IMG/VR virus record: IMGVR_UViG_3300031918_000005
Span: 1-64,000 of that record
From: a virus
Strand: one strand, 5' to 3'
DNA length: 64,000 bases
Each line of letters begins with the position of its first letter. The first letter of the stretch is position 1. The notes under the pieces were generated by a model. That model saw only the letters and a list, made by a program, of their open reading frames with translations, searched no databases and had not been told where the DNA came from. Position numbers and translations under genes: made by a program. Positions 5,858 through 55,154 of this stretch are shown here, in pieces.

Positions 5858-5945
5858 TGTCATGTCATTAATATGTCAGTTTGTCAGTTTTAATATATCT
5901 ATAATTTGAACTGACATATTAATAACAAATTGGCACGATTTTTGT
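5858..5945 (+). promoter_or_regulatory. sigma54-type promoter copy 1 with upstream TGTCA cluster
   Basis: TTGGCACGATTTTTGT at 5930-5945; GAACTGACATA at 5908; TGTCA at 5858, 5863, 5874 and 5882. Confidence 0.7.
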
Positions 5946-5978
5946 AAATAATTTAGAAATAATTCTAAAATTACAATT

Positions 5979-6449
5979 ATGAAAAAAATTATCTTATTCT
6001 TAGTATTGTTACAAGTTTGTAACTTACAAGCACAACAAATGCATTTAGTTGTGAAATCTAATGGTACACAGTATGCAACACAGTTATCAAATGTTAGAAA
6101 AATTTCTTTCATTGGTGGTACTGTTACCGTTGTTAAAAAAGTTGGAACTCAAGAAACTTATTCACCAGTAAGTCTTGATAAGATGTTCTTTGAATTAAGA
6201 ACCGTAACATCGGTTACTACACCAACTAACATTGATTTTGTGATGTATCCTAATCCAGCTACTGATATTGTTTCAATACAATCAGTTCCTGAAAACACAC
6301 AAATTGATGTCTATAATATCAATGGTGTGAAAATGATATCATGTAAATCAACAGTTGATATAACTCAAATCAACATAAGCTCTCTTGGTTATGGGGTTTA
6401 TTTGGTTAAAATAGGAAATTATAAAACATTAAAATTACAAAAATCTTAA
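5979..6449 (+). CDS. Secreted protein with T9SS type A C-terminal sorting domain
   Basis: Sec signal peptide (MKKIILFLVLLQVCNLQA|Q); CTD motifs YPNPA.D, VYNING, INISSL..GVYLVK, K.LKL. Confidence 0.85.
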   Translation: MKKIILFLVLLQVCNLQAQQMHLVVKSNGTQYATQLSNVRKISFIGGTVTVVKKVGTQETYSPVSLDKMFFELRTVTSVTTPTNIDFVMYPNPATDIVSIQSVPENTQIDVYNINGVKMISCKSTVDITQINISSLGYGVYLVKIGNYKTLKLQKS

Positions 6450-6453
6450 AGCC

Positions 6454-7290
6454 ATGAAAAAGCTAATATTTTTAATCACATTATTAACTATAAGTATTTT
6501 ATCTTTCTCACAAGATAGCTTATATGTTTACAGAACTGGTGGTCGTATCGAAGCTAAAAGTGTAGCTTCTGTAGATAGTATCAAATTCAACCTAGCTAAA
6601 GACAGTTTACTTTTTTACAAACTTGGAGTAGCAACAGCTATGGAATTTGGATTTGTTGATAGTATTTCATTTATCAGAGTGAATACTGTTCAATCCACTG
6701 TTAAGGATAAAGGTGTTGTAATCAATGGTGTGTGTTGGGCAACTCGTAATGTTGCTTCTACTGGTACATTTGTTACAAATCCACAAGACTATGGTTATTT
6801 CTATATGTGGAACAAAAAAACTGGTATATCACAAACAAGTTCAACAGCAACTAATAGTATGTGGACTGGTGGGTACTCACCAGTAAATTACAATACAGAT
6901 ACTTGGACTGCAGCAAATGACCCTTCACCCACTGGTTGGCGTGCTCCTACAAAAGCAGAATTGAATAGCTTATGTTCTGGTACTAAAGTATCATATGAAT
7001 GGACTACACTTAATGGTGTATATGGTGCAAAGTTCACAGATAAAACAACACTTCAATCAATGTTTCTTCCAGCAGTTGGATATAAAGATGGAACATCAAT
7101 TTGTTTGCAAGGCTCTAGTGGTTATTATTGGTCGGGTAATGCAGGTACTGTCGAAGGAGATTGGAGTATAGGTGGAAATACAAGTACAAATGGAGGAACT
7201 AGGTTATGGTTTAAAAGTGGAATATCAACATATTCCATAGATGGTGATATGAGATATTATGCATTCAGTATCAGACCAGTTATACGATAA
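6454..7290 (+). CDS. Secreted FISUMP (Fibrobacter succinogenes major paralogous; C-type-lectin-like fold) domain protein
   Basis: Signal peptide ending FS|Q; INGVCWATRNV, YG.FY.W, DPSPTGWRAPT..E, FLPAVG, YYWS, FSIRPV. Confidence 0.85.
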   Translation: MKKLIFLITLLTISILSFSQDSLYVYRTGGRIEAKSVASVDSIKFNLAKDSLLFYKLGVATAMEFGFVDSISFIRVNTVQSTVKDKGVVINGVCWATRNVASTGTFVTNPQDYGYFYMWNKKTGISQTSSTATNSMWTGGYSPVNYNTDTWTAANDPSPTGWRAPTKAELNSLCSGTKVSYEWTTLNGVYGAKFTDKTTLQSMFLPAVGYKDGTSICLQGSSGYYWSGNAGTVEGDWSIGGNTSTNGGTRLWFKSGISTYSIDGDMRYYAFSIRPVIR

Positions 7291-7318
7291 AATTTATTAA
7301 AAAGACAAGATAATTTAT

Positions 7319-7732
7319 ATGGAGAATTTGGTAGGAAGTAAAGAAAGTGATAAATTTATTCAAAAAGAGTTTGAAAAGGCTAAAATACCATTTGAAAAAG
7401 TTGATAATCCAAGTGGTGAATGCCAATATACTTTGGTTGGAAAATTGAATGGTTGGATTTTTACAAGAGCTTGGTATTATTGGTGTGCTTCTACAGAAGG
7501 TGAAGGTATTCCTTTGGAAACTGCTTTGGAAATGCACAATAAAAAATATCCTGATGAAATGTTTGATCATTATCATGAATATAGAATTTATGGCAATTCT
7601 ATAAGAGTTGAAGGTCATTGCGGATGTCCTTCTCCTGATGAATATTGTAAAGGACAAAGTTCTGTAACATTATATCACATAGATACACAAGAAGGGCTTA
7701 ATGAATTTGTACGTGTAATTAAAAAATTATGA
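7319..7732 (+). CDS. Hypothetical phage protein
   Basis: ORF in the co-directional array (GWIFTRAWYYW). Confidence 0.65.
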   Translation: MENLVGSKESDKFIQKEFEKAKIPFEKVDNPSGECQYTLVGKLNGWIFTRAWYYWCASTEGEGIPLETALEMHNKKYPDEMFDHYHEYRIYGNSIRVEGHCGCPSPDEYCKGQSSVTLYHIDTQEGLNEFVRVIKKL

Positions 7733-7739
7733 TATTTAA

Positions 7740-8108
7740 ATGAATATCAATCAAGAAGAATTTAGAAAGATACTTGATATAACTGCTAGAAAAAATAAAA
7801 CATCGTTTACATCAAATGATGTCGATACAATAATCAAAGCACTAAATCAAATCAAACCCGATGAGTATATTTATGAATTTCTATATTGTAATTGTATTCA
7901 TGAAAGTGCTTATGCTACTGTTAGTTTACATCACACACAAAAAGGTGCTGAAATGGCTTTGGAATTTCATAAAAATGAAAGATTTAAGGAATGGGAAGAT
8001 TTTAATAAAAAATGTTTAGAATCAGATCCAGAATTCTATTCCAAGTTTCCAAATAAATTTGCAGAATATGAAGGGTGGTATATTCAACAGACAAAAATCT
8101 TGGAGTGA
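7740..8108 (+). CDS. Hypothetical protein
   Basis: ORF in array. Confidence 0.6.
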   Translation: MNINQEEFRKILDITARKNKTSFTSNDVDTIIKALNQIKPDEYIYEFLYCNCIHESAYATVSLHHTQKGAEMALEFHKNERFKEWEDFNKKCLESDPEFYSKFPNKFAEYEGWYIQQTKILE

Positions 8109-15378: not shown

Positions 15379-16101
15379 ATGGCTGATATAAACGAATATA
15401 GAAAGCTTGTTGATAAAATTTTTGAATTTCAAGTCAACAAAGATGCTGAATGTATAGTCACAAGACAAATTTTTACATTGGTTTCAAAATTTGTCTTTGA
15501 ATATAGAGGTGGAATAATAGAAATCAAATCTGATTGGCATTACAACAATATACTTTATCTCAAAATGAATATCATGAATGATGATATAGTTAGTGTTGAT
15601 AAATGGTTTTGGGGAGTTATACATCAATATGTCAAATCCAATAAGTATTTCGTTGATTTCGTTGAATTTCTTGTTGTGCATAAATATGAGCCAGCTGTGA
15701 AATTAATTAAAGATAATTCCTAATATATTACTGAAGAAAATATGGGTCATAGAACATTTAATGAAATTTATGATAAACAGGCTGATATATTAGGAATTAA
15801 GCCTAGATTATTTGCACTTATAATCAATCTAAAAGCACAAAATGGTCATTTTGTGTTAAAATCTGATTTTAAAAGTATTTTATTGGAGAATGATTTCCAT
15901 GGTTCACTGGTTAAACGTTTCATAACTGGTTTCACAAAATTACATTTATATCATAGTTATATTGGTCAAATAAGTTATATTGACATAAGTTCACTTCGAT
16001 TGCGTGAAAATGATATGGTAGTTGATATATTATATAATGAAATGTTTGATTTTGGTTACGTTCAACGTAACCAATTGGAATCCTTAAAACCTAAAAAATG
16101 A
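15379..16101 (+). other. Two hypothetical CDS (15379-15723, 15742-16101)
   Basis: ORFs in array. Confidence 0.55.
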
Positions 16102-16157
16102 CAAATATAATAACATTAAAGTCAAAGATTGAACTAATATAAAACTTACAATATGTT

Positions 16158-16247
16158 TGTCATGTCATTGTGACATGACAAAACTGTCATACAATGTTAA
16201 AACTTTTGAACTGACATAATAATAACAAATTTTGGCATGATTTTTGT
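16158..16247 (+). promoter_or_regulatory. sigma54-type promoter copy 2 with TGTCA/TGACA cluster
   Basis: TTGGCATGATTTTTGT at 16232-16247; GAACTGACATA at 16208; pentamers at 16158, 16163, 16171, 16176 and 16185. Confidence 0.7.
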
Positions 16248-16281
16248 AGGAAATTAGTAACAATAATTAAAAAATATAATT

Positions 16282-16578
16282 ATGACAACTACATTAATCG
16301 GGAAAACTATAAAAGGAAACGATATTGAAATAATGATTGAATCAGCTGGAATTATTTCAAATGAATTTGGAATTGATAATAATCTTATACTTTTTGCAAA
16401 ATATAAAGGAGAATTCAAAAAATTAAATATTTATTTTGATAATTATTATTTTGAATTAGAAGGGAGAAAAGTATTTGTCATTTCAGTTCAAGAAGGAAGC
16501 AGATTAATGAAAGAAGCTGAAAAACAAATGGAAACAAATGGAAAATCTGAATTGTTTGAATTAGTTACTAAATATTGA
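16282..16578 (+). CDS. Hypothetical protein (MTTT start) under sigma54-type promoter 2
   Basis: ORF about 35 nt after the promoter. Confidence 0.65.
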   Translation: MTTTLIGKTIKGNDIEIMIESAGIISNEFGIDNNLILFAKYKGEFKKLNIYFDNYYFELEGRKVFVISVQEGSRLMKEAEKQMETNGKSELFELVTKY

Positions 16579-16614: not shown

Positions 16615-16654
16615 GAACTGACATAATAATAACAAATTTTGGCACGATTTTTGT
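16615..16654 (+). promoter_or_regulatory. sigma54-type promoter copy 3
   Basis: GAACTGACATAATAATAACAAATTTTGGCACGATTTTTGT; near-identical to copy 2 through to ATGACAACTACA. Confidence 0.7.
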
Positions 16655-16688
16655 AGGAAATTAATAACAATAATTAAAAAATAAAATT

Positions 16689-17027
16689 ATGACAACTACA
16701 ATTATCTTGGAAGGTAAAGAATTGACTTTCAACTGTGAATCTGAAGTAACAAATGGTGTTTTCACAACAAAAACCTCCGCAGACGGCACAATGAGCATCA
16801 ACAATTGCCTTGGTGAAATGTTCCTATGCAAAACTGCCTGGATGTTAGAAAATGGAATGTCTGAATGTTATGACAACATTGGTGAGTACATGATTGATGC
16901 AATTATGGATTTACCATGGAGTACCCAAGGCCATGAAATTGTCAAAAAACATGTACAAGGACATAAGCATTATAAATATATCTTAGGAATCTTCTCTAAT
17001 AAATATCCTCATTGTGAAATGTTTTAA
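16689..17027 (+). CDS. Hypothetical protein (MTTT start) under sigma54-type promoter 3
   Basis: ORF about 35 nt after the promoter. Confidence 0.65.
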   Translation: MTTTIILEGKELTFNCESEVTNGVFTTKTSADGTMSINNCLGEMFLCKTAWMLENGMSECYDNIGEYMIDAIMDLPWSTQGHEIVKKHVQGHKHYKYILGIFSNKYPHCEMF

Positions 17028-20226: not shown

Positions 20227-20364
20227 ATGAAAAAACCGAAAATTGTAAACACCGTTATTGCGGTCGAGCCTAAGATAACAAATGATATTTGTTATCATTT
20301 GTTGAGAGATAGAGTACTGACACATAGAGGTTACCATTGTGGAAAATGTGGAAAGCGTTTTTAA
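20227..20364 (+). CDS. 45-aa small Cys/His protein missed by the ORF track
   Basis: MKKPKIVNTVIAVEPKITNDICYH...YHCGKCGKRF*; fills the gap before rtcB. Confidence 0.5.
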   Translation: MKKPKIVNTVIAVEPKITNDICYHLLRDRVLTHRGYHCGKCGKRF

Positions 20365-20374
20365 ATTTTATTAT

Positions 20375-21553
20375 ATGAAAACGATTAAAAGAAATAACGG
20401 AAACGACATTAAAATTTATGCAACTACTTTAGAAGATGTTGCATTTGAGCAAATTAAAGAGCTTGGAGAATTTGAGCCTTATCAAGATTCTAAGATTAGA
20501 ATTATGCCTGATTGCCATGCTGGGGCAGGTTGTACCATTGGTACTACAATGGAAATTAAAGACAAGATTACGCCTAATTTAGTTGGTGTTGACATTGGTT
20601 GTGGAATGCTTACCGTAAAGCTAAGAGAAACCGATATTGATTTACAAAAGTTAGATGCTGTTATTAATGAGTTTGTGCCTAATGGTTTTAATACGCATTT
20701 AGAGCAGAAAGCGGAATTTGAGTTTCATAAATTGATTGCTAAAAACCTAAATATTGAACGTGCAAAACTTTCAATTGGCTCATTGGGTGGCGGAAACCAT
20801 TTTATTGAAGTTGGTAAAAATTCCAAAGATGAATTGTTTTTAGTAATTCATTCAGGCTCTCGAAATATTGGTGGACAAGTTGCAAAATATTACCAAGATA
20901 TTGCAATTGCCAATTTAACAGATAATTCAAAAGAGCGTGAAGAGTTGATTGAACGCCTAAAAACAGAAGGTAAGCAAAACGAGATTGGTGAAGAGTTGAA
21001 AAAACTTAAAAAGCCAATTATAAACAAGGATTTGGCTTACCTGACTGGCAATGATTTTAACAATTATATGCACGATATGGAATTGATGCAAAAATTTGCT
21101 GTATTAAATCGTAGAACTGTGGCAAATATTGTATTAGAAAAGGCAGAATTAACCGAAGCCGAAGCGTTTGAAACAATACATAACTATATTGACTTTAAGC
21201 GTATGATTTTGCGAAAAGGTGCTGTTTCTGCTGAAAATGGCGAAACATTGCTTATTCCAATTAATATGCGTGATGGTTCTATTATTGCTAAAGGCAAAGG
21301 AAATGAAGATTGGAACTACTCTGCACCACACGGAGCAGGGCGTTTAATGGGCAGAAATGAAGCGCATAAGAAATTGGACTTTGAAGAATTTAAAGAACAA
21401 ATGAAAGATGTTTATTCGACTTCTGTTTTAACTGAAACATTAGACGAAGCACCAAATGCTTATAAGTCAATGAATGAAATTATAGAAGCGATCGGGGAAA
21501 CTGTTGAGATTTTAGATATTATCAAACCTATTTACAATTTTAAGGCTCATTAA
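20375..21553 (+). CDS. rtcB: RNA-splicing/repair ligase RtcB
   Basis: MPDCHAG.GCTIG, VGVDIGCG, GSLGGGNHFIE, HSGSR, HNY, RKGA, SAPHGAGR, DEAP.AYK, YNFKA. Start moved to MKTIK. Confidence 0.95.
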   Translation: MKTIKRNNGNDIKIYATTLEDVAFEQIKELGEFEPYQDSKIRIMPDCHAGAGCTIGTTMEIKDKITPNLVGVDIGCGMLTVKLRETDIDLQKLDAVINEFVPNGFNTHLEQKAEFEFHKLIAKNLNIERAKLSIGSLGGGNHFIEVGKNSKDELFLVIHSGSRNIGGQVAKYYQDIAIANLTDNSKEREELIERLKTEGKQNEIGEELKKLKKPIINKDLAYLTGNDFNNYMHDMELMQKFAVLNRRTVANIVLEKAELTEAEAFETIHNYIDFKRMILRKGAVSAENGETLLIPINMRDGSIIAKGKGNEDWNYSAPHGAGRLMGRNEAHKKLDFEEFKEQMKDVYSTSVLTETLDEAPNAYKSMNEIIEAIGETVEILDIIKPIYNFKAH

Positions 21554-23720: not shown

Positions 23721-24746
23721 ATGCCTATCAAAAATTCATCAGCTACTGGATATAGAGGTGTACTAAAAACATCAGCAGGAAGATACTCCGCATACATGAG
23801 TAACAGAACTACTAGAAAAACTGAATATTTGGGTGTTTTTAATACACCTGAAGAAGCAAGTGAAGCATATAATAAAAGAGCTAAAGAAATAATCAACGAA
23901 GCACCAAAAATTGAAAATCTACCTAATGAACAATGGGTAGATATTGTTGGATATGAAGGTCTTTTTCAAATATCAAATTTTGGAAGAGTTAAGAATATTA
24001 AATATCTTTATGAAGATGGTAGAGAAAAATTATCTAAATTCAGCAAAAAAAATAAGTTTGGAAAAATCTATCTTGCAGTTAGTTTAGAAAAAGATGGTAA
24101 AGACCTTAAATTTATGGTTCAAAGGTTGGTTTTTGTTGGTTTTATTGACAAATATTTACATCCTCAAGCAAAAATACTTCATATTGATGGTAATACTTCA
24201 AATAATAAAGTATCCAATCTTCAAATTGCTACAACAAGAATGGCTGTTCAAAACAGAAAAAATAAATCTGGTGCTACTGGTGTGGAAAAAACACCAGTAG
24301 GTAGATATTTTGCAAGAATTAAAAATAGCATAACTAAAAAGAGAGAAACTTTGGGTACATTTGATACACTTGAAGAAGCAAGTGAAATTTATCAGAAAAG
24401 AGCTAAAGAGCTACAAGAAGAATATGATGCTATATATAGTTATGGTTATAAATCACTTAATAATGGAACTGGCTTTACTGGTGTTTATGAAGCGGAAAAA
24501 GGTAGATTTCAAGCCATAATGTATAATAGCATACTTAAAAAAATGGAATGTTTGGGAACATTTGATACATCTGAAGAAGCAAGTGAAGTATTTCAAAAAA
24601 GAAAGGCTGAATTTGTTGAAAGTAAAAAAATTGAAATGACTGTTGAATGTTTATATTGTGGAAGACTTTTTGCTAAAGAAACTAATCATAAATGTCATAA
24701 TCCTAAAACATATAGAACTAAAAACTTCATGTGGAAAAATTTATGA
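23721..24746 (+). CDS. AP2-NUMOD4-HNH-AP2-AP2 homing-endonuclease-like protein
   Basis: EQWVDIVGYEGLFQISNFGRV (NUMOD4), HIDGNTSNNKVSNL (HNH), three G..GV...GR..A....LG.F.T.EEA..Y/F AP2 repeats. Confidence 0.85.
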   Translation: MPIKNSSATGYRGVLKTSAGRYSAYMSNRTTRKTEYLGVFNTPEEASEAYNKRAKEIINEAPKIENLPNEQWVDIVGYEGLFQISNFGRVKNIKYLYEDGREKLSKFSKKNKFGKIYLAVSLEKDGKDLKFMVQRLVFVGFIDKYLHPQAKILHIDGNTSNNKVSNLQIATTRMAVQNRKNKSGATGVEKTPVGRYFARIKNSITKKRETLGTFDTLEEASEIYQKRAKELQEEYDAIYSYGYKSLNNGTGFTGVYEAEKGRFQAIMYNSILKKMECLGTFDTSEEASEVFQKRKAEFVESKKIEMTVECLYCGRLFAKETNHKCHNPKTYRTKNFMWKNL

Positions 24747-24817
24747 CATTATGACATGACAGAACTGACAAATATGTCAGTTGACATATTAATAATGAAT
24801 TTTGGCACGATTTTTGT
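24744..24817 (+). promoter_or_regulatory. sigma54-type promoter copy 4 with TGACA cluster
   Basis: TTGGCACGATTTTTGT at 24802-24817; TGACA at 24744, 24752, 24757, 24766 and 24782; TGTCA at 24775. Confidence 0.7.
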
Positions 24818-25005
24818 AGGAAAATAATCGAATTCTTTGAAATGATGGATTGAATAGAGGGTACAAGTAAGACTGACTGGACTGCAATGAAAGTAGGCAT
24901 ACAAGTAATAGAGTGATAAGGGGAAGATAAGTAATTATTCTTTGGTATACAGTAAGACCTTGCAACTAACGAAAGATTCATTTAATAATTTAAAAAATAG
25001 AAATT

Positions 25006-27402: not shown

Positions 27403-27439
27403 AAAAGTCCAATTATCTGCTCAATGATTGGACTTTTTT
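27403..27439 (+). terminator. Intrinsic terminator closing the accessory array
   Basis: AAAAGTCCAAT...ATTGGACTTTTTT. Confidence 0.75.
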
Positions 27440-39136: not shown

Positions 39137-39286
39137 AATAAATTTGGTTTAGTTATTATTTAATTATTTATATATTTGATAAATAATTATTTTCATTTTC
39201 AAATTTGATATCTATATGTGGAAACTTCATTTTTCAGGTATATTCAGGTGTTAATAATTTAATTATATATTAAATGGACATAATAA

Positions 39287-39298
39287 TAAATAATTAAA
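39287..39298 (+). promoter_or_regulatory. Candidate late promoter TAAATAATTAAA
   Basis: 18 nt upstream of the prohead protease start. Confidence 0.55.
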
Positions 39299-39316
39299 TT
39301 AACATTACTTTTAATT

Positions 39317-41803
39317 ATGATTGATATAACTCAAAATATAATGATTTTTGAAAGCTTCAAAACACCAATGAAGCGTATCAATGAAGATGTTGAAAATAAG
39401 AAGAACGAATATATTTTTGAAGGTATTTGCGCAGATTTTTCTGATATAAACCGTAATGGTAGAACCTATGACAAAGAAGAATATTTGTCTTTTGTTAATG
39501 GTTCTCTTGCAGACCAAATAGCTCAAATGTCACTTGCTGGAAGTCTTGATCATCCTGAAGATGATGAAGATGAAGATAAGGATATTTTCACTCCAAAAAT
39601 GAAGGAACTTTCTCACGTTATCTTGGCGTTATGGTATGAAGAGGCAACACAACAAGTAAAAATAAAAATAAAATTACTTGATACTCATTTAGGTAAAGAT
39701 GCTAAGGCCTGTGCTGATGCTGGTATGCCTATTTATATTTCTTCAAGAGCTTCAGGTATTATTGACAAAACTGGTCAAGTTCATTTAGACAATATTCATA
39801 CTTATGATATAGTATATAAACCTGGATTTAAACAAGCAAAACTTGTTAGAGTTCTTGAATCCGCTGAAAACAATTCATCTTATGTAAAAATTTTTGAAAA
39901 TACTAGTACTATGACAACTTATTATATAATGTATGATTACAAAAAAGGTAAATATAGTTTTGGAGAAACAAAAGGAAGTTTACCTGAATGGCAAGAATTT
40001 ACAGGAAAAAGTTTTAATGATCAAAATCAAGCATCACTTTATTGTAAAAATGCTGATACATCAACTCCTGATGATTTTACACCAAATCAAGAATTGATTG
40101 ATAAATTTAAATCTCAAAATATCATGGAAAACGTATCAAAGCAAGAATTTGAATCCGCCATTGGTAAAATCAATGAGTCATTGATTTTAATTTCAAAATC
40201 ATTAGGTAGAAAGCCAAATAAATTCGTAATTAACGAATCAAAATTTACTAAAAGACTTAAAAGACTTCGTATCAACGAAGATGAGCAACTTGACAAACAA
40301 GATGTTGTGTCTTTAATCGTTGATGTAACAGATGCTCCTATAGAAGATGTTGCTAAAGCTATTACCGATGAAACAGTTGAGAAAATCAATGCAGTTCTTT
40401 CTGATGAGGATGTGTTTGATAAAGTTGTTGATATAGTTAAAGAAGATATGGATGAACTTGTCGGTGAAGCTGTTGAAAAAACTGAAACTGAAAAAACTGA
40501 TGAAGAATGGAAACAAGAGGCAATTAAATCCCTTGCTAAAACAAGAGGTATTTCTGAAGAAGATGCTACCACGCAAATAACAGATGAATTGATTGAAGCC
40601 TATAAAGAAAGTCAATCAAAATCTGAAAATGAAAATGAAACAGCTGAATCAATCAACGAATCATTAATTAAAAAATTTAACAGAACATTTCGTAAAATTT
40701 ATGAATCTGAAGAAACTCTTGGGGGGATAGTAAATTGGATGCATGAAGCCGATTTGAGAAGATTTAATCAATCACTTAAAAAAGTATGTGATAACGGTGA
40801 AACACTTTATTTTGGTGTACTTGGTGTTGGTGAACTTGAATTAAAGAAAAACACTGAAAGTAATACAATAGATATATCGAAGGAATCAGGTAGTGAAGGT
40901 GGTGAACCTACTTACACATTGGTTGGTTCTATTCCTTGTGACGATGTTATTGCTGTTGGTGAAAGCTTTAAGTCAAAATATATTAAAGAATCTGAAGAAA
41001 TTGGAAACGCTGAAAATTTTGTTGCTACATCTGATGCTCCAGCAGCTGAAAAGGTTTCTATCATTAAAACTTTTAATGATCTTTACGGTGCTGATAATGA
41101 TATTGTTGAAGGTGATGATGAACAAACAGTTGAGGCTTTCTTACAAGAACAAAATCAACTTACAGTTGAAGCAGTTTCTCAAAGAATTGACTTAACAAGC
41201 AAACAATTGTTTGATAAATCAAACCTTATTTCAAAAAGAGTTAATTCTGTTGTTGAATACATGAATGTTGTAGCTACAACCTTTAATGTTGTTAATGACA
41301 AAGTTGAAGCACAAGGAAAACAAATTGAAGCGTTGATACAACAATTACAGTTAGCTCAAACTAGAATCAATTCTGTTACAGAATACTGTAATATAATGGT
41401 TGCTGCTATGAATCAATCAATTGGTACACAAACCGAACAAACAGATACTATCAATGAAGCTAAAAAAGTTATTGAAAAGAGAAAGTCAATCTTTGAAAAT
41501 CTTGATAATAATATAAATAGAATAATTACAAACTCTGCTAATGGAAACGAAAACAAAACAAATAAGAATGGTGTTTTGATAAATGAAGTTCCATCAAAAT
41601 ATAGTAAGATTTTTGAATCTCTCGATGGGAAAATTCAAAATGAAATCAAAGCTTATGTGGTATTCAAAAACCCAAAATCGAATTTAGAACTTGATGCAAT
41701 TTATGAATCTCTAAATTTGGAAAAAGGTTCTAATTCGGCATTAATCTTTGAAAGCACTAATTTTGAATATAGCGATGATTTCATCGCTAATATGTGTGGT
41801 TAA
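39317..41803 (+). CDS. Prohead protease (T4 gp21-like) fused to scaffold/core protein
   Basis: EGI...NRNGR.Y...GSLDHP...SH.I...LLDT..G...ISSRASG...TYDIV..PGF, followed by an acidic coiled-coil with many I-x-E sites; directly precedes the MCP. Confidence 0.85.
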   Translation: MIDITQNIMIFESFKTPMKRINEDVENKKNEYIFEGICADFSDINRNGRTYDKEEYLSFVNGSLADQIAQMSLAGSLDHPEDDEDEDKDIFTPKMKELSHVILALWYEEATQQVKIKIKLLDTHLGKDAKACADAGMPIYISSRASGIIDKTGQVHLDNIHTYDIVYKPGFKQAKLVRVLESAENNSSYVKIFENTSTMTTYYIMYDYKKGKYSFGETKGSLPEWQEFTGKSFNDQNQASLYCKNADTSTPDDFTPNQELIDKFKSQNIMENVSKQEFESAIGKINESLILISKSLGRKPNKFVINESKFTKRLKRLRINEDEQLDKQDVVSLIVDVTDAPIEDVAKAITDETVEKINAVLSDEDVFDKVVDIVKEDMDELVGEAVEKTETEKTDEEWKQEAIKSLAKTRGISEEDATTQITDELIEAYKESQSKSENENETAESINESLIKKFNRTFRKIYESEETLGGIVNWMHEADLRRFNQSLKKVCDNGETLYFGVLGVGELELKKNTESNTIDISKESGSEGGEPTYTLVGSIPCDDVIAVGESFKSKYIKESEEIGNAENFVATSDAPAAEKVSIIKTFNDLYGADNDIVEGDDEQTVEAFLQEQNQLTVEAVSQRIDLTSKQLFDKSNLISKRVNSVVEYMNVVATTFNVVNDKVEAQGKQIEALIQQLQLAQTRINSVTEYCNIMVAAMNQSIGTQTEQTDTINEAKKVIEKRKSIFENLDNNINRIITNSANGNENKTNKNGVLINEVPSKYSKIFESLDGKIQNEIKAYVVFKNPKSNLELDAIYESLNLEKGSNSALIFESTNFEYSDDFIANMCG

Positions 41804-41843: not shown

Positions 41844-43460
41844 ATGAATAATAATGTAAAACAAAAAATCTACGAGCGGTGGACACCAAAATTAGAAAAA
41901 CGCTTCGCTGACAAAGGTGTGAAAATCAATGAAAGCAAGTTAAAAACTATCGCTTTAATGGCGCATACTCGTTCAGTGTTTGAAGCTGCTACTACTGCTA
42001 ATACTCCTGGTAAGGGTATGTTCTCTTTTGGTAATAATCCAGCTGATGCAGGTGATGCTTCAAGAGGCAGTGCCGAAATGTTGCAAAAATTATTCGGTGT
42101 ATTTGTTGATGTATCTGCAGCTACTGCTGGTCTTGATTTGTTGACAACTTTGCCGATGACAAAATCATCTATTATGGTGGTGGTTGCTGAACCAGTTTAT
42201 GCTGGTGGTAAAAAAGATTCTATCACTGACCGCTTACCAGTTTTCCAAGTGAAAACTACTGGTACTGCTACTGCTCCTTATACTGCAGGTGCTACTATCG
42301 TTCTTGGTGACTTAACAGTCAAATTTGTTGGTAAACACTACTATAACGGTAATTATATCTTACAATTAGTATCTGTTGCCTCTGCCTCTGCCTCAAAAAC
42401 TGTTGCTGAAATCATTGATGACTTAGCTACTCCAGTTAACGGTTTAACTTATGATGCAACAACTGTTGATTATGTTAACGGTTTCACAAACTTTGTATCA
42501 GGTTTCACTGGTGCTGGTCATGACAATGATACACCACTTTCTACTTCTCGTAATAATGGTAAAACATTAGCAAGCCCATTATCTCGTGAAGTTGGTGAAA
42601 CTGCAAGTGTTAATAATTATTCTGCAAGAATGTGGAATGAAAACTTCTCTGCTGGTACTTACCATGCAACAGTTGATTTCACTATTGAACAAATCCAAGA
42701 TGCTAAAATGGATCATGATTTTGACATGCTTGAATTTGGTGATACCATTTTACAAGATGCTCTTGCTCAATCTTTGAACAACCATATCTTGAGTTATATT
42801 TTTGCTGCAGGATGGCAACATCATGTAAATGTGAATGCAGTAACAGGTAAATCTTTGAACTGTTACATTGCTCCTTCTTCTGAAACTTCAGGTGGATATT
42901 CCTTCGTTAACTTGAAAGAAGAAACTAAAACAATTGCAGGTACTGCAGGTGTTTTACCAGCTACTGGTGCTATTGCTGAAAACTTATCAACTTTACAACG
43001 CAGAATTGTTTCTCGTATGTATTACACAGCAAGTATCGTTAAAAATCGTGGTCGTAATGGCATCGCTAATACTTCTGTTATGAATGGTACAAATGCAACC
43101 GCAATTCGTGATGTAAAAGGTTATACCATTGCTCCAGTTGAAGGAGAAATTCTTGGTGGTGATAACAATCTTGGTTTGATCGGTAATGTTAATGGAATTA
43201 ACATTTATGAGGATGGTTTGATGGATTTGAGCGATGGTCGTATCTCTGTTTTCAAAAAATCATTAGAAGGTAAACCAGGACTTTTCTTCTGCCCTTATAT
43301 TTTAGCTGAAAAGGTTACAGCAGTTGTTGAAGGTTTGATGTCGCAAAAAAGCTTGTTGAAATCTCGTTACAGCATAGCTGTTGCAGGTTCACAACCTGAA
43401 TCGCAATATATGACTTTCGTTGTTGAAACGAATGTTGATGGTGGTTACGACTTAGTATAA
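41844..43460 (+). CDS. Major capsid protein (T4 gp23-like)
   Basis: Position after the protease; ERW.P.LE N-terminus; T.EQIQD; PGLFFCPYI; KSRY.I; strong codon bias; followed by a terminator. Confidence 0.9.
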   Translation: MNNNVKQKIYERWTPKLEKRFADKGVKINESKLKTIALMAHTRSVFEAATTANTPGKGMFSFGNNPADAGDASRGSAEMLQKLFGVFVDVSAATAGLDLLTTLPMTKSSIMVVVAEPVYAGGKKDSITDRLPVFQVKTTGTATAPYTAGATIVLGDLTVKFVGKHYYNGNYILQLVSVASASASKTVAEIIDDLATPVNGLTYDATTVDYVNGFTNFVSGFTGAGHDNDTPLSTSRNNGKTLASPLSREVGETASVNNYSARMWNENFSAGTYHATVDFTIEQIQDAKMDHDFDMLEFGDTILQDALAQSLNNHILSYIFAAGWQHHVNVNAVTGKSLNCYIAPSSETSGGYSFVNLKEETKTIAGTAGVLPATGAIAENLSTLQRRIVSRMYYTASIVKNRGRNGIANTSVMNGTNATAIRDVKGYTIAPVEGEILGGDNNLGLIGNVNGINIYEDGLMDLSDGRISVFKKSLEGKPGLFFCPYILAEKVTAVVEGLMSQKSLLKSRYSIAVAGSQPESQYMTFVVETNVDGGYDLV

Positions 43461-43839: not shown

Positions 43840-43934
43840 ATTTGTTTATATTTTGTTGATTTTTATATATATTATTTTATATTATTTTCATTACTTATAT
43901 ATATGTCAATTCAACATATATCACACAATGTTAG

Positions 43935-43946
43935 TAAATAATTAAA
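43935..43946 (+). promoter_or_regulatory. Candidate late promoter TAAATAATTAAA
   Basis: 30 nt upstream of the sheath start. Confidence 0.55.
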
Positions 43947-43976
43947 TTTTTATTATTAATTAAACATTATTATACC

Positions 43977-46900
43977 ATGGCTAAAACAACGATTACGTTA
44001 AGTGACCTACGTTACAAATATCAGGGTGCTGGTGTTTGGACTATAATTGATGATGATTCGGCAACTCCTCAACCAGTTAATAACAAGCAAATATGTTTGG
44101 TAGCTGGCTCATCAAAAATAGGTCACATAAATAGACCTTTTTATGTTGAAAAAGGCGATATTAAAACTTTTAGAAATATGTTTGGCACAGTCGATAAAAG
44201 TCTTGAAAGAAAAGGATCATTCTTCCATCGTTCGGCAGAAATTGCACTTAAGGAATCTGCTATTCTTGCAATGAACTTAATTCCTTTAACAAACAATATT
44301 GATGATGGAGGTGATCCAACAGCTGATGCCGATACGGCACAATATCAATCTTTCTCCTTGGATTCCAATGCAAACAATTCTACCAAAAAAACAAAATTGT
44401 TAGCTAGTTATTACCAAAAAGAAAGATTTTATATTCCTTCAAAAGATTATTTATTGGCTACAAGAGATATAGCCGATAAATCAAAACTTCTTTCGCTTGT
44501 GAATTTAGGAAACCAAAAAATATCTTTCATAATCAAAAAATATGAAGCAAAAAGATATGATATTCAAGTTCGTGACTGGTATAAAGATGATGAAATCCCA
44601 GCATATTTAAATCCATCGGATTTAATTTCTGATTATTTTATTGAAATTATTGGTATTATTGGTGATTTTTCTTCAAATAAGTATGAATCATTATCTGTTG
44701 ATACAACTTTCAGTACATATTTCACAAAAGATGGTCTTATTGCTAGTCAAATTGAAAACTTCCTTGCTAACCAAGAAGTATCAACAAAATTTAGAGTGAG
44801 TGGCATTGTTATACCCAATTTTGTTGATAAAGATGGAACTAATTTATCTATTGATTCTCAAATCAATTCAGCAGTTCTTAATTTTGGTGTTATTTGTGCG
44901 ATCGATGAAGAACAACTCGACTCGTTTGAATATGGTGATGAAACTGGATATCTAGACCTTGTTGGCCATAGATTAATCAATAGTGATAAGACTTCTATTG
45001 ATATGTTGAGCTATAAGGCATCTTTAACAAATGCTTATACATTTGATACAGTTACAGAAAATGTTGCTAATTTTTTTGACACAGAAAGTTCTTACTTATC
45101 AATTACTTATTTACCTAAAAAGGCCGTCATTACAGTTTTAGCTGGATATGCTGGATTTGAAACTTTAAAAGGAAACTTGGAAGTTGGCCAAGTTATTATG
45201 GGTACAACAACTGCTGCTGGTATCACTGCTGGTATCACAGATGCTTCACAAGAACTTGTAATTAAAAGTGTTGCAAAATTCACAAATCAAGTTATCATAG
45301 AAGTTGGTAATACAAACAAAGATTTAGAAACCTCTATAAGTTATGTTGATATTAATGATGGTGCACTTTATATTTTATCATCACCAATATTCAAATTATA
45401 TTCAGATAATACTTACGCAATCGCTGGAAAAGATTCGGAATTTATGGCTGCATTCAATAATGGTTTCGTCAAAAATGGTGATAGAGTTGTTATTGGTGGT
45501 GTTGAACATTTTATCAATGTAACTAACATTATTGGTTATAACAATTATAGTGGTGTTAACACATTCGGTGAATACAACAGAATTGATGTTTATACAACAG
45601 AAGCTATGACAACTAAAGCTACTGCATTAGTTTTAGCTAACTTATTTGCTGTCGGTGTTGCAAGCTTTGTAGCCACTCAAGAGGTATTATCTTCAAGAGT
45701 TGAAATACTTGAGCAAACAAACCCAAACACTGTTGTTATTTCAAATACATACGCAAGTTCACTTGCAGTTGGGAAATACTTGGTTGGTGGTTCTGATACT
45801 GAAAATCCAATATTATCAAGAATTACTTCAATACGTAATACTATTGTTGGTAGTGGCTTGGTTAATAATGCATTGATTGTTACTTGTGCAGATACAATTA
45901 CAATTACTAACATTCTTGGCAATGATACAGTTGAGGTGTTTAACAAATTTGGTTCTGTTGCTATAAATTTAAGCGTATTTTGCTTGGATGGATTTAGAAT
46001 ACAACAAGCTTCTTTGCCTGATAAAACCAATGCAAGAGTTCAAAAAATTTATAAAACCATTACCGAAACTTCAATTGGTAATGCTCTAGTAGATCCTGAA
46101 TTGGTCAATTTCCGTTACTTCATAGATACATTCAATAATGGTCTTGAAGCAGGTAGTAAATCTTATTTAACAGCATTCTTTAAGCGTAGACAAAAATGTT
46201 TAGGTTTATTGAATACACCATCCATAAGCGAATTTAAAAATTCAACAAATCCAAGATTTACTACATCACCAACTGCTGAAGATCCGCTTCCTGAACTTAA
46301 TGTTGACTTCATAGTTACAGGTGGTAATATTGATGAAAACCCTGATTGGTTATATTCATTACCTAATGAGATTGATGGGGCTAGTTTTGCTGGTTACTTT
46401 TTCCCAAATATCAATGTTCGTGATTCCGATGGTACAACAAATTCTGTTCCACCTGCAGCTTTTGCTTCCAACGCATTTATGCGTAAATTTGGAACTGTCG
46501 ATGAACACAAGCCAGCTGCAGGTATCATAAGAGGTGTTATTTCGGGTGATGGTGTTACTGGAACAGATTACACTATGCTTGTCGATGAATACAGAACACT
46601 TATCGAATTTGGTATTAACCCGATTATTAGCAAAAGTGGTCAACTTGTAATTTACGGAAATGAAACATCTTATAAAAAGTACATTTCTGCTCTTAATAAC
46701 TTAAATGTTAGAGATTCATTAATCACTTTTGAGATTGATACAACAAATCTTATCGAGCCTTATGTATTTGATTTTAACGATGATATTATGCGCTCTACTT
46801 TGTCAACAATACTTCGCAAGTACTATGATACAATGAAAGATACTTATAGAATTCTTGAAAGTTATGAATTGATTTTTGATAGGAGTAATAATCCAGATGC

Positions 46901-47027
46901 TTTCATTGATGCTGGAGCAGCAATTGTTGATACAGTTGTTGTGTTCACTGGTATTGCTAAAAAGTTTATAAATAGAATAACAATTAAAGGAAGAACAGTT
47001 ACTTCTTCTTCTTTTATATCAATTTAA
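43977..47027 (+). CDS. Contractile tail sheath protein
   Basis: GAGVW..D.S; G.SKIG.IN.P; F..MFG; VPPAA..SN; AG..RG.I; GINPI; YGN.T; LNNLNVR; YVFDFN. Confidence 0.9.
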   Translation: MAKTTITLSDLRYKYQGAGVWTIIDDDSATPQPVNNKQICLVAGSSKIGHINRPFYVEKGDIKTFRNMFGTVDKSLERKGSFFHRSAEIALKESAILAMNLIPLTNNIDDGGDPTADADTAQYQSFSLDSNANNSTKKTKLLASYYQKERFYIPSKDYLLATRDIADKSKLLSLVNLGNQKISFIIKKYEAKRYDIQVRDWYKDDEIPAYLNPSDLISDYFIEIIGIIGDFSSNKYESLSVDTTFSTYFTKDGLIASQIENFLANQEVSTKFRVSGIVIPNFVDKDGTNLSIDSQINSAVLNFGVICAIDEEQLDSFEYGDETGYLDLVGHRLINSDKTSIDMLSYKASLTNAYTFDTVTENVANFFDTESSYLSITYLPKKAVITVLAGYAGFETLKGNLEVGQVIMGTTTAAGITAGITDASQELVIKSVAKFTNQVIIEVGNTNKDLETSISYVDINDGALYILSSPIFKLYSDNTYAIAGKDSEFMAAFNNGFVKNGDRVVIGGVEHFINVTNIIGYNNYSGVNTFGEYNRIDVYTTEAMTTKATALVLANLFAVGVASFVATQEVLSSRVEILEQTNPNTVVISNTYASSLAVGKYLVGGSDTENPILSRITSIRNTIVGSGLVNNALIVTCADTITITNILGNDTVEVFNKFGSVAINLSVFCLDGFRIQQASLPDKTNARVQKIYKTITETSIGNALVDPELVNFRYFIDTFNNGLEAGSKSYLTAFFKRRQKCLGLLNTPSISEFKNSTNPRFTTSPTAEDPLPELNVDFIVTGGNIDENPDWLYSLPNEIDGASFAGYFFPNINVRDSDGTTNSVPPAAFASNAFMRKFGTVDEHKPAAGIIRGVISGDGVTGTDYTMLVDEYRTLIEFGINPIISKSGQLVIYGNETSYKKYISALNNLNVRDSLITFEIDTTNLIEPYVFDFNDDIMRSTLSTILRKYYDTMKDTYRILESYELIFDRSNNPDAFIDAGAAIVDTVVVFTGIAKKFINRITIKGRTVTSSSFISI

Positions 47028-50456: not shown

Positions 50457-52043
50457 TTATTTATTATATTCATAAACATCTATCCCACAATTATAAATTC
50501 TTGGCATCGTGTCATTTTCTCGTTTATATCCTTGATTTAATTTACGAATTGATTGCTTGGAAACACGAATATGGTTTTTTTCATTCAAAAATTGATAATT
50601 AGGTTTATTTCTTCTCACGAATTCAAATCCAAGTCTTTCATAAATTTTGCCTGTGAATAACGAGATATCACAATAAGTAATTATTTTACAAAATTCATTA
50701 TTATTTATATAATGTTTAAATAATTTTTCAGCACCACCAATAATTGTTGTATTAAGTTTTATAGCATAACGTTGTAAAATATTTCCTTTAAACGACATTA
50801 ATGAAACAAGTTCGCTATTATAATAAAGTCCATAACAAATTGATTGTGTCATTATTTTACCATTAATATGATTTTCCTCAAGAAATTTATTTGTATTATC
50901 CAAATTTACTTCTTTAATTTCACATTTTCTTGCAAATATTTTATGATTTAACTGTGGAGAAATGGTTGTTTGTAATATAGATTTAATCATGTTAATTTTG
51001 TAAACCCAATCATCTTCGAAAATATGAATTAAACGAATTCCTTTTTCATTACAAAGTTCTGATTTCATTTTATGATAATTATCTTTTACAATATAATCAC
51101 TATGCCAATAAAGACCATTGTACTCAATAGCCAAATTTAGTTCAGGAATATAAATATCAAGTTCATAAGGAAAAATCAATTCTTTTTTTCTAACATTTTC
51201 TTGTATAAATTTCTTGTATATAGAAGAAATAAAATTAGCAAGCTGCTTTTCTCCATTGGAAAAATATTTTTCCAATGGATTACATTTTGTACATATTTCA
51301 TGATTTGATGTATTTCTTTGATAGTAAACACTTGAATTTATATCAAATTCTCGATTACATTTTGGACATTTTAAAACAAAAAGTCTACTTTCGGGTAATT
51401 TTTTGATAACAGTATAATCATTATTACCATCTTCGTGTAATCTTATTTGAAAATCTTGTATATATTTTTTATGTTTGTTGTTCTTATATTCATCTGTTTG
51501 AGTATAATGATTAGTACCATATTTTTCTAAACATTTTTGTTTTAAGTTTTTTTTATATTCATCTGTTTTAAAATATGAATCAACCCCATATTTATCCAAA
51601 CACATGGATTTTATTCTTTCAGAAAATCCATTTATTTGTGAAATACTTTCAACACCATACTTATCCAAACATGTTTGCTTGTGTTTGGAAATTATATGTT
51701 TGGATTTCATTGCGTTTTCAACCCCATATTTATCCAAACATGTTTGTTTGGATTTTGAAATTACATCATTGGATTTTGAATATATATTTTGGCATATTTT
51801 TGAACAAGTGTTTGAATAATACTTGTTTCTATCAAAATTTGTTGGTTTACCACATATTATACATTTTGATAATTCAAAATTGTTGTTTTTTATATGCCAA
51901 ATTCTTTGTAATAATGATATTTTATTATAATTAGAATCAAGAAAAAAGGTTATTGAAACAATTTCTTGATATTCTTTGTGTTTATAATAAAATTGTTGTG
52001 GTAAGGATTTGTATTGATTGTACCAACTTACTAAATGATTCAT
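50457..52043 (-). CDS. Zn-finger/CLDKYG-repeat + Vsr-like endonuclease + C-terminal GNAT/Mom-like domain
   Basis: QRIWHIKN; four CL(D/E)KYG repeats; PYELDIYIPELNLAIEYNGLYWH; HIFEDDW; FLEENH..G; IIGGAEKLF; IITYCD...G.IYERLGF. Confidence 0.75.
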   Translation of the reverse strand: MNHLVSWYNQYKSLPQQFYYKHKEYQEIVSITFFLDSNYNKISLLQRIWHIKNNNFELSKCIICGKPTNFDRNKYYSNTCSKICQNIYSKSNDVISKSKQTCLDKYGVENAMKSKHIISKHKQTCLDKYGVESISQINGFSERIKSMCLDKYGVDSYFKTDEYKKNLKQKCLEKYGTNHYTQTDEYKNNKHKKYIQDFQIRLHEDGNNDYTVIKKLPESRLFVLKCPKCNREFDINSSVYYQRNTSNHEICTKCNPLEKYFSNGEKQLANFISSIYKKFIQENVRKKELIFPYELDIYIPELNLAIEYNGLYWHSDYIVKDNYHKMKSELCNEKGIRLIHIFEDDWVYKINMIKSILQTTISPQLNHKIFARKCEIKEVNLDNTNKFLEENHINGKIMTQSICYGLYYNSELVSLMSFKGNILQRYAIKLNTTIIGGAEKLFKHYINNNEFCKIITYCDISLFTGKIYERLGFEFVRRNKPNYQFLNEKNHIRVSKQSIRKLNQGYKRENDTMPRIYNCGIDVYEYNK

Positions 52044-53963: not shown

Positions 53964-53984
53964 ACAATTTTATGTGTTTATAAT

Positions 53985-54016
53985 AAAAATGGCGAAATGT
54001 TGTCATTTCGCCATTT
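53985..54016 (-). terminator. Terminator
   Basis: AAATGGCGAAATG-TTGT-CATTTCGCCATTT. Confidence 0.75.
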
Positions 54017-54042
54017 AAACATTTTGTTTAAGGAATTTTGAT

Positions 54043-54633
54043 TTATGCTTTTACTGGATTTCCATCCATGTCAAGAAGCAAGCCGAAAATTTTTTCTTTT
54101 CTTTTTCCGATTTTTTCAACATGAGTTGTGATGTAACCCTTTCTTTGCAATGTTGAAAAAGCACCAGCATATGATAAATTACCTTCACATACTCTGAAAG
54201 AGAAACCATATCCAATGCTATATTTTGCATCAGAACCATTTGAAGCTTCATTGATACATTTTTTCAAAACTATTTTTTCAAGTTCAGTCAAAGCTTCTTT
54301 TTGTTTTTTTAACCTTTCAAGTTTTTCACTTGCTGAAGATAACATAAGTATGTCTTTACCTTCAGCAATAAGGTCAGAAATTTTTTCCAAAGGCAATTTT
54401 GTTGTTTTGCTATAAATAACATCAATAACTTTTTCAATAGCGATTTTCAAGTTTTCACCTTGCTCGTCTGAATATTCAGGTAATAAATTACCATCAACAC
54501 AAACCATCAAAGGTTTTAACGAATTATTTTTAACTCCTGATTTTTTAACTAAAAATCCAGTTCCATCAAAAAATAAAGCGTAAATATTTTTAAGAGTTGA
54601 TTTCTCTACTGATTTAAATATTAAATTTTTCAT
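54043..54633 (-). CDS. Hypothetical protein with possible C-terminal winged helix
   Basis: AGAFSTLQRKGYI; start at MKNLIF. Confidence 0.55.
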   Translation of the reverse strand: MKNLIFKSVEKSTLKNIYALFFDGTGFLVKKSGVKNNSLKPLMVCVDGNLLPEYSDEQGENLKIAIEKVIDVIYSKTTKLPLEKISDLIAEGKDILMLSSASEKLERLKKQKEALTELEKIVLKKCINEASNGSDAKYSIGYGFSFRVCEGNLSYAGAFSTLQRKGYITTHVEKIGKRKEKIFGLLLDMDGNPVKA

Positions 54634-54708
54634 AATTTCCATTTTTTAAATTTGACAATTGTTTTTATATTTTGAGGTATTTTAATTTTTAATTTATAAT
54701 TTAGTTTA

Positions 54709-54945
54709 TTAACAATTGTCACTAATTTTGACTAATGTAGTTTTATTTTTAATTGCTAAATTTATTCTTCTAATAATCAATTTTGTTGGAATTGAAAATT
54801 CAGGTATATTAAACCCATGTGTCACTACTTGTATTCTTGTGGAATTCTCATTGGTATCAATAATTTTTACTTCATGATGCTCGTTATTAACACCTTCTCC
54901 TACTACCATTATTACAGTTTCACCGATTATTAAATTTGTTTTCAT
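54709..54945 (-). CDS. Small SH3/beta-barrel-like protein under sigma54-type promoter 5
   Basis: Start MKTNL after AAAAATAGAAATT. Confidence 0.55.
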   Translation of the reverse strand: MKTNLIIGETVIMVVGEGVNNEHHEVKIIDTNENSTRIQVVTHGFNIPEFSIPTKLIIRRINLAIKNKTTLVKISDNC

Positions 54946-54981
54946 AATTTCTATTTTTAAATTATTATTTCCCATTTATAT

Positions 54982-55154
54982 ACAAAAATCGTGCCAAAAT
55001 TTATTAGTATTATGTCAATTCAAAAAGTTTTAACAATTTTTAACATAATACATATTGTTGTTAACATTTGTTAACCTCATACATGACAAATTGACATAAT
55101 AATAACAAATTTATGTCATGACAATACTGACATATCAAGCCTATAAAAATGACA
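54982..55154 (-). promoter_or_regulatory. sigma54-type promoter copy 5 with upstream TGACA/TGTCA cluster
   Basis: ACAAAAATCGTGCCAA at 54982-54997; TATGTCAATTC at 55011; pentamers at 55084, 55092, 55114, 55119, 55128 and 55150. Confidence 0.7.

Follow-up and report, generated by a model that had tools for sequence, protein, structure and literature searches.

The first 64,000 nucleotides (nt) of IMG/VR record IMGVR_UViG_3300031918_000005, referred to here as the window, harbour five copies of a conserved promoter-like cassette, while three further copies are located in the remainder of this complete virus genome (167,485 bp; 28.6% G+C). These eight cassettes are interpreted, with a probability of roughly 0.6, as promoters for the sigma-54 polymerase of the host, switched on by the activator of the host's chaperone genes.

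Identification of a sigma-54-type core motif

The core of the cassette, TTGGCAYGATTTTTGTA, was found in five exact copies in the window, compared with 0.09 expected and with none of 100 shuffled sequences attaining five, and in eight copies in the full genome. Sites 1 to 4 are positioned on the plus strand (5930–5946, 16232–16248, 16639–16655 and 24802–24818, with the T of TGGCA at 5931, 16233, 16640 and 24803) and site 5 on the minus strand (54981–54997, with the T at 54996), as are sites 6, 7 and 8 outside the window (79346, 82333 and 84001, also being the positions of the T). All eight cores are intergenic and each is aimed at a gene, in agreement with an earlier sequence-based proposal (the original prediction) for the five copies of the window, of which the minus-strand coordinate is here corrected from 54982 to 54981. 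The T of TGGCA precedes the ATG by 47–53 nt at seven sites (48–51 nt for sites 1, 2, 3 and 5 in the window) and by 203 nt at site 4.

The core was shown to conform to TGGCAYG-N4-TTTGT, equivalent to GG-N10-G, which represents the exact spacing of the sigma-54 -24 and -12 elements in all eight copies, the sole deviation from the TGGCAC-N5-TTGC consensus being a T instead of a C at -12. The conserved block exceeds the 17-mer, as it extends from TTTTGAAYTGACATA via the core into a common leader, AATAATTTAAAAAATAGAAATT-ATG. At sites 2 and 3, the common block (16212–16293 and 16619–16700) reaches into the first four codons (MTTT) of genes encoding proteins of 98 and 112 amino acids (aa), respectively (16282–16578 and 16689–17027, both on the plus strand), neither of known function. 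Nothing beyond the promoter, leader and these four codons is shared between the two genes, and a paralogous relationship between their products was unsupported (E=0.34). The blocks resemble portable promoter-leader-start modules, recalling the way in which promoter-early stem-loops reshuffle the early genes of T4-type phages.

Outside the phage, the 17-mer is common in Bacteroidales assemblies, which accounted for 49 of the 80 titled matches listed. In 13 Prevotellaceae/Bacteroidales assemblies the identical 17-mer is directly followed by long (GA)n or (CA)n runs; a conserved segment was also observed upstream of these loci, which possibly represent phase-variable sigma-54 transcription units.

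Upstream boxes and the 13-bp unit

The original prediction had placed a TGACATA box about 20 nt upstream of each core in the window. The box was measured to begin 19–21 nt before TGGCA at all five sites (5912–5918, 16212–16218, 16619–16625 and 24782–24788 on the plus strand; 55011–55017 on the minus strand), and genome-wide its offset is 21 nt at six sites, 19 nt at site 1, and both 27 and 22 nt at site 6. The clusters of TGACA/TGTCA pentamers that had been described for four of the five sites were likewise recovered, with 5, 7, 1, 7 and 7 pentamers in the 160 nt upstream of sites 1 to 5, compared with a genome mean of 0.35 per 160 nt. Intervals with at least four pentamers occur at ~9 places in the 167 kb genome, six or seven of which are directly upstream of cores; the clustered sites are 1, 2, 4, 5, 7 and 8, with 5–7 boxes apiece. 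Two other clusters (81636–81795 and 128348–128507) are loose, lie inside coding sequence and were set aside.

Within these clusters, a 13-bp unit, TGWCA-N3-TGWCA, was observed eight times in the genome compared with 1.07 expected under a first-order model, and six of the eight units are located 49–113 nt upstream of a core, one per cassette. The enhancer-like cluster of site 1 (5858–5886, plus strand) comprises four TGTCA boxes including the unit TGTCAGTTTGTCA (5874–5886), and is followed by the core TTGGCACGATTTTTGTA, which overlaps a TAAATAA motif. Six TGWCA boxes were identified in each of the clusters of site 2 (16099–16189, plus strand; palindromic unit TGTCATTGTGACA at 16163–16175; core TTGGCATGATTTTTGTA), site 4 (24693–24779, plus strand; unit TGACATTATGACA at 24744–24756) and site 5 (55084–55154, minus strand; unit at 55084–55096). 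The site 4 cluster overlaps the 3′ end of an HNH endonuclease gene (23721–24746), and site 3 is located ~400 nt downstream of the site 2 cluster. At 116 bacterial-genome sites carrying the identical 17-mer, which served as a control, only 0–2 pentamers were present per upstream 160 nt (mean 0.39), indicating that the boxes are not a side effect of the core. As judged from sequence, the TGWCA clusters and their 13-bp unit represent candidate upstream binding sites for an activator, i.e. a bacterial enhancer-binding protein (bEBP).

Where the 13-bp unit is at least 92 nt upstream (sites 5, 7 and 8, as well as in relative G001), the gap is filled by GTTAA(A/C) repeats at about -38, -48, -59, -69 and -79, corresponding to a period of ~10 nt; these repeats are absent or single where the unit is closer (sites 1, 2 and 4). 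At site 5, four such repeats with ~10-nt spacing separate the core from the distal boxes (55030–55075, minus strand), and may represent phased A-tracts or be recognized by a DNA-bending protein.

Comparison with chaperone promoters of Bacteroidota

The original prediction had mentioned similar leaders, consisting of TGACA/TGTCA and TGGCA, upstream of Bacteroidota chaperone genes, and these were indeed seen in both Flavobacteriales and Bacteroidales. A map of transcription start sites in Flavobacterium psychrophilum had located the sigma-54 motif SM4 before groES/EL, lon, dnaK, grpE-dnaJ, htpG, clpB, skp and a gliding operon, and the same study had listed a sigma-54 interaction domain in three proteins (Guerin et al. 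2021, PMC9723704), while a 2025 survey described the same chaperone enrichment of sigma-54 promoters across Bacteroidota (PMC12316311).

For the comparison, upstream regions of groES and grpE were collected from sampled Flavobacteriales genomes, yielding 43 promoters. Their core consists of TGGCA-N8-(T/C)G followed by A, C or T, mostly 42–75 nt before the ATG, and TGWCA boxes are enriched ninefold (1.70 versus 0.19 per 120 nt). The boxes begin sharply at -25 and -17 from the T of TGGCA, which corresponds to TGWCA-N3-TGWCA-N12-TGGCA, with weaker peaks at ~-36, -46 and -57, and Bacteroidales groES promoters were shown to contain the same boxes at -16/-17 and -24/-25. Of 42 Flavobacteriales promoters, 22 have A, 18 have C and 2 have T after the -12 G, and T is found there in 4 of 24 Bacteroidales promoters. 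The GT of the phage, which had been singled out as the one mismatch to the RpoN consensus, therefore falls within the host range (A, C or T), indicative of a minority host state rather than an anomaly.

The genome-wide matrix scan that had been suggested for these promoters was performed with a weight matrix built from 42 of the Flavobacteriales groES/grpE cores. The eight phage sites rank 1–8 among ~335,000 genome positions (17.9–19.6 bits, with the next-best position at 16.2), although these matrix cores had been chosen by a regular expression fixing TGGCA and G, so that the ranking is partly circular at those positions.

The phage cassettes thus resemble Bacteroidota chaperone promoters in their -24/-12 core (TGGCA-N8-TG), T-rich spacer, TGWCA boxes including the 13-bp unit, distance to the ATG, and A-rich leader without a Shine-Dalgarno sequence. 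They differ in that they would drive phage genes of unknown function instead of chaperone genes, in the displacement of the unit from -25/-17 to -49 to -113, in the far larger number of boxes per promoter, in the near-universal T at -12 (mostly A or C in hosts) and in the added GTTAA repeats.

Probable origin of the sigma factor and its activator

Neither RpoN nor a bEBP, for which a search had been advised, is encoded by the phage, since no Sigma54_DBD, Sigma54_activat or Sigma70_r2 domain was detected in six-frame searches of the whole genome, and both components would need to be supplied by the host. PHROG scans of 20 large phage proteins did not reveal an RNA polymerase. Sigma-54 and bEBPs are present in Bacteroidota, as evident from a control genome, from PMC9723704 and from a candidate linked to groES. 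The latter, a bEBP of 383–419 aa, is encoded 2–6 kb from groES in five of eight Flavobacteriales genomes. Its sigma-54 interaction domain (AAA+) starts at residue 12 and contains GAFTGA at residue 87; an AAA lid follows, and HTH_8 forms the C-terminus. The protein is without a sensor domain, like PspF, and represents a candidate heat-shock activator of the phylum.

Conservation in related phages and other viral contigs

Relatives with 86, 67 and 51% capsid identity contain two to four core copies each, compared with 0–1 control matches. Across these and a relative with 45% capsid identity (G446), TGGCAYG and TTTGT are retained at sigma-54 spacing, whereas the N4 spacer and the proximal box vary: the spacer is TCTT and CTCT in G004, one copy has TTGC, and the proximal box shifts or vanishes. 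Such invariance amid a varying spacer is what selection on the -24 and -12 elements would be expected to produce.

The position of the boxes was found to differ within the family. Relative G446 carries five copies of the identical core, four of which are preceded by TGACA-N3-TGTCA-N12, so that TGACA-N3-TGTCA-N12-TGGCA reproduces the exact host chaperone layout; the fixed box position of host promoters is thus found in this relative and not in the present phage. In relatives G003 and G005, by contrast, ATGACA is directly repeated every ~10 nt as far as the core, while in the present phage (G000) and in G001 the enhancer unit has moved upstream behind GTTAA repeats.

Three unrelated large viral contigs, G447 (3300028048_000103), G448 (IMGVR_UViG_3300021399_000099) and G449 (3300028591_000072), were shown to contain 10, 48 and 19 cores, respectively, compared with 0 control matches. 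These cores, often the identical TGGCACGATTTTTGT, form strand-coherent blocks. No TGWCA boxes were present at the inspected core copies, and neither an RpoN DNA-binding domain nor a GAFTGA activator was found in the three contigs. Weak Sigma54_activat matches in G446, G448 and G449 were not counted as activators, being without GAFTGA, and the G448 open reading frame has two Walker A motifs. Two G448 cores directly follow tRNA-like sequence.

Genes downstream of the cassettes and a possible second promoter class

Chaperone or protease genes were not found behind the cassettes. Unit 1 commences with genes at 5979–7290 (plus strand), which specify a 156-aa protein with a type IX secretion system (T9SS) C-terminal sorting domain and a 278-aa FISUMP-like protein with a Fib_succ_major-like domain that scored under the Pfam cut-off. 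Sites 2 and 3 precede the small proteins described above. The 'AP2 protein' of the original prediction was retained at site 4 and refined to a NUMOD4/AP2 homing endonuclease (25006–25788, plus strand), which starts 203 nt past the core and adjoins the HNH endonuclease gene. Unit 5 (53987–54945, minus strand) encodes proteins of 78 aa (54709–54945) and 199 aa (54043–54642), whose functions are unknown, and is closed by a strong hairpin terminator (53987–54016, minus strand). Beyond the window, site 6 is followed by genes for a 639-aa protein of unknown function, deoxynucleoside monophosphate (dNMP) kinase and thymidylate synthase, site 7 by that for a 135-aa protein of unknown function, and site 8 by that for a 502-aa MORN-repeat protein (genome positions 82440–83948, minus strand). 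Homologues of the latter in G003, G004 and G005 (30–34% identity) likewise follow a cassette, making this the one cassette-driven gene conserved behind cassettes in three relatives. Under a strict criterion, no terminator was detected within 8 kb after sites 1–3 and 6–8.

Across the whole genome, the most enriched intergenic word (14-fold) is TAAATAA(T/A), often in the form of TAAATAATTAAAA. It is located 17–45 nt before the ATG in 39 of 90 genes with an upstream gap, including structural genes (protease, sheath), with examples in the window at 27404–27500, 39280–39316 and 43930–43976. The word resembles the T4-type late promoter (TATAAATA), in which an A/T-rich octamer is the sole element near the start, an organization that the cassettes do not have; no sigma factor able to read it was found. 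TAAATAA(T/A) is missing from 5.98–27.5 kb and 73.7–84.2 kb, i.e. exactly the stretches headed by cassettes, and overlaps a cassette only at site 1. The genome therefore seems to be partitioned between two classes of promoter. The territory of the sigma-54 class consists of blocks of small genes and of genes for nucleotide metabolism with the look of an early region, and judging from layout its units are probably long early-type gene blocks. This modifies the original prediction, in which selected accessory genes were wired to a host sigma-54/stress circuit: the wiring is supported in silico, its restriction to a few accessory genes is improbable.

Proposed mechanism and alternative explanations

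A cassette comprises up to four parts, namely a TGGCAYG-N4-TTTGT core, a TGACATA half-site ~21 nt upstream, one 13-bp unit with extra half-sites 49–160 nt upstream and, where the unit is at least 92 nt away, GTTAAAA repeats at ~10-nt spacing that would bend the DNA. The phage would contribute only these DNA sites, with the sigma factor and AAA+ activator provided by the cell, the likely activator being the sensor-less PspF-like protein encoded near groES. Host sigma-54 holoenzyme would bind the core as a closed complex, after which the sensor-less activator would occupy the 13-bp unit and neighbouring half-sites and assemble there. Where the unit is distal, contact between activator and polymerase would be enabled by a bend at the phased GTTAAAA repeats, much as IHF or intrinsic bends bring the two together at classical sigma-54 promoters (PMC5095919), and ATP hydrolysis would then open the promoter. 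Expression of the phage units would follow, and could be boosted by, proteotoxic stress caused by the infection itself; as host chaperone genes are abundant and stress-inducible, copying their route would provide strong phage expression that rises with folding stress. The -12 element and adjacent fork junction hold the sigma-54 closed complex (PMC5095919), and it may be speculated that the near-universal T at -12 alters how tightly the promoter is locked.

A more far-reaching version of this mechanism may be put forward, though it is rather doubtful. Here, the phage would have no primary-sigma promoters at all. The sigma-54 cassettes would be the sole starting points of its entire early programme for host polymerase, which spans ~32 kb and comprises small genes, RtcB, dNMP kinase and thymidylate synthase. 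The chaperone-titration sensor of the host (the sensor-less heat-shock activator) would in that case both trigger and tune infection, with the near-universal T at -12 loosening the sigma-54 lock so that the phage out-competes host chaperone promoters.

Several observations, besides the partial circularity of the matrix ranking, weigh against assigning the cassettes to the host sigma-54 chaperone circuit. Exact copies of the 15-mer core are scarce among 401 Flavobacteriales genomes (5 matches versus 5 control matches), implying that the phage cores are more alike to each other than to any sampled flavobacterial promoter, and only a minority of host chaperone promoters have T at -12. The 13-bp unit of the phage is located at -49 to -113 with a lone half-site at -21, instead of at the fixed -25/-17 of the host, and sites 3 and 6 are without a cluster of their own. 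No such core was detected in the capsid relatives G409–G411 or in Flavobacterium phage MaF61, indicative of a lineage-specific trait. Recognition of TGWCA by the sensor-less bEBP is itself presumed, and the assignment as a whole is built on sequence.

Of the competing explanations, the strongest accepts the core as a genuine sigma-54 promoter but holds that the arrays bind a phage regulator involved in shut-off or timing, or act as decoys that titrate the host chaperone activator and blunt the heat-shock response. The arrays are indeed much bigger than those of the host (5–14 boxes versus ~2) and are not at its fixed position, the ATGACA direct repeats of G003 and G005 have a ~10-nt period as opposed to the 8-nt unit of the host, and the accompanying GTTAA repeat has no host counterpart among the promoters seen. 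However, six cassettes hold the exact host 13-bp unit, G446 keeps the host layout unchanged, and a DNA-binding regulator encoded by the phage was not identified. Since sigma-54 promoters need an AAA+ activator to fire and the phage encodes none, some host activator must act at the cassettes, where the arrays are the only candidate sites. This explanation is consequently viewed as unlikely, yet a decoy role of the large arrays is a live alternative or addition to activation.

It is more improbable still that the resemblance to -24/-12 elements is coincidental and that the cassette is read by host primary sigma (-33 TTG/-7 TAnnTTTG), through a TTGACA-type -35, or by a polymerase redirected by the phage. 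A TTTG and AAATTTTG are readable 18 nt apart in the G000 cassettes, sites 4 and 5 have a perfect TTGACA, and TAAATAA(T/A), being another phage-specific promoter-like motif, implies that the phage redirects transcription. Yet the sigma-A-like reading is lost in site 1, G003, G004 and G005, where TGGCAYG-N4-TTTGT is kept, and the spacing of TGACATA varies from 9 to 23 nt in relatives, which is unfit for a -35 element. TAnnTTTG shows no enrichment before phage genes (8 regions versus ~10 expected), no phage gene has a full -33 TTG/-7 TAnnTTTG match upstream, and a sigma-70-family gene, or an RNA polymerase among the large phage proteins, was not found. Host chaperone promoters with mapped sigma-54 dependence have both the core and the boxes (PMC9723704). 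The primary-sigma and TTGACA-type readings were rejected on the basis of conservation among relatives. The least probable explanation, to which very little weight is given, regards the repeats mainly as recombination modules, i.e. portable promoter-leader-start cassettes that shuffle early genes and are conserved by gene conversion. It would account for the common block that spans the proximal box, leader and first four codons before otherwise unrelated proteins at sites 2 and 3, for a decayed duplicate 190 nt upstream of site 5, and for the homing endonuclease genes flanking site 4. The core and boxes nevertheless persist, with different flanks, in phages whose capsids are only 45–51% identical, the boxes match host promoters, and orientation and start-codon distance are uniform; such shuffling is moreover compatible with promoter function, and would be additional to it rather than replace it.

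Relationship to known systems

According to the prevailing view, phages launch infection by means of strong primary-sigma promoters or polymerases of their own. For the enhancer-dependent sigma-54 route, one published phage case was found, that of Pseudomonas phage YuA, for which a sigma-54-dependent promoter is described (Ceyssens et al. 2008; PMC10914365). YuA is similarly a lytic phage without its own sigma-54 that employs host sigma-54 for part of its transcription; it differs in having one such promoter among mainly sigma-70-like and phage-specific ones and in its proteobacterial host, and neither a link to a heat-shock activator nor copied host enhancer boxes are reported in the text consulted. 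The Escherichia coli psp system, in which the sensor-less bEBP PspF acts with IHF from upstream activating sequence (UAS) sites on the sigma-54 pspA promoter (reviewed in PMC5095919), offers an analogy with regard to activator sites, DNA bend and -24/-12 core, and a sensor-less candidate activator and stress control in trans are proposed here. Its box sequence is different, the bend proposed here derives from phased GTTAAAA repeats and not from a known IHF site, and the regulon consists of chaperones instead of membrane-stress genes.

The control mode, which had been called rarely described, is rare in the literature, although not unique in view of YuA and of the contigs with 10–48 cores. The present case is one well-marked member of a wider, unpublished pattern of sigma-54-type cores in large phages: contigs G447–G449 have the same or a near-same core and similarly contain no RpoN DNA-binding domain or GAFTGA activator, but their inspected copies are without TGWCA boxes, whereas the present family pairs cores with host-type enhancer units. 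Sigma-54 control of chaperones in Bacteroidota (PMC9723704, PMC12316311) and a sigma-54 phage promoter in YuA have already been published, while a literature search retrieved no paper on the TGWCA unit, its activator or phages carrying it. Three features distinguish the present case: phage genes other than chaperone genes are preceded by enhancer units of the host heat-shock type, these units are rearranged among members of one family, and the genome appears to be divided between two classes of promoter. Sigma-54 cores combined with the activator boxes of host chaperone genes are carried by an entire family of large phages of Bacteroidota. If this is correct, phage expression in a major environmental and gut phylum would be coupled to the protein-folding stress signal of the host, the cassettes would constitute a natural set of strong, compact and portable sigma-54 promoters for Bacteroidota genetics, and independent support would be gained for the heat-shock activator of the phylum, which has yet to be named, and for the site that it binds.

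Phage affiliation and additional features of the window

Structural genes in the window, encoding a prohead protease (39317–41803), major capsid protein (41844–43460) and tail sheath (43977–47027), identify the phage as a myovirus, which also encodes RtcB, a primase, ribonucleotide reductase, a UvsX-like recombinase, NAD ligase and several homing endonucleases. Its closest isolate by capsid protein is Flavobacterium phage MaF61 (37% identity), with remoter matches to phages of Tenacibaculum, Chryseobacterium and Prevotella, and a DNA-level search revealed no close phage. Based on these capsid matches and on the T9SS sorting domain of one phage protein, the host is assigned to Bacteroidota at the level of phylum; homologues of the FISUMP-like protein, considered for host identification, carry only vague Bacteroidia names.

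Four homing-endonuclease-type genes (HNH, NUMOD4/AP2 and two phrog_3339) are located in the window (23721–25788, 27500–28693 and 50457–52043), with site 4 being placed between two of them. The site 4 leader is unstructured and terminates in the common AAAAATAGAAATT-ATG leader, and ~150 nt appear to have been inserted between the core and this common part. An RNA gene or intron was considered for this leader and discarded, as no tRNA, Rfam family or stable fold (z +1.6) was detected. The decayed second cassette upstream of site 5 (55143–55189, minus strand) retains the proximal box and spacer (TTGACATATTAATAATAAATT), while its core has degenerated to AATTCATGAATTTCTTC. Short DNA matches (75–84% identity over 88–201 nt) to RtcB (tRNA-splicing-ligase) genes of Bacillus phages Deep Blue, BvP and Thurquoise were observed at 15492–16456, a region that covers small genes and the cassette of site 2, while the phage's own RtcB gene is located at 20339–21553.

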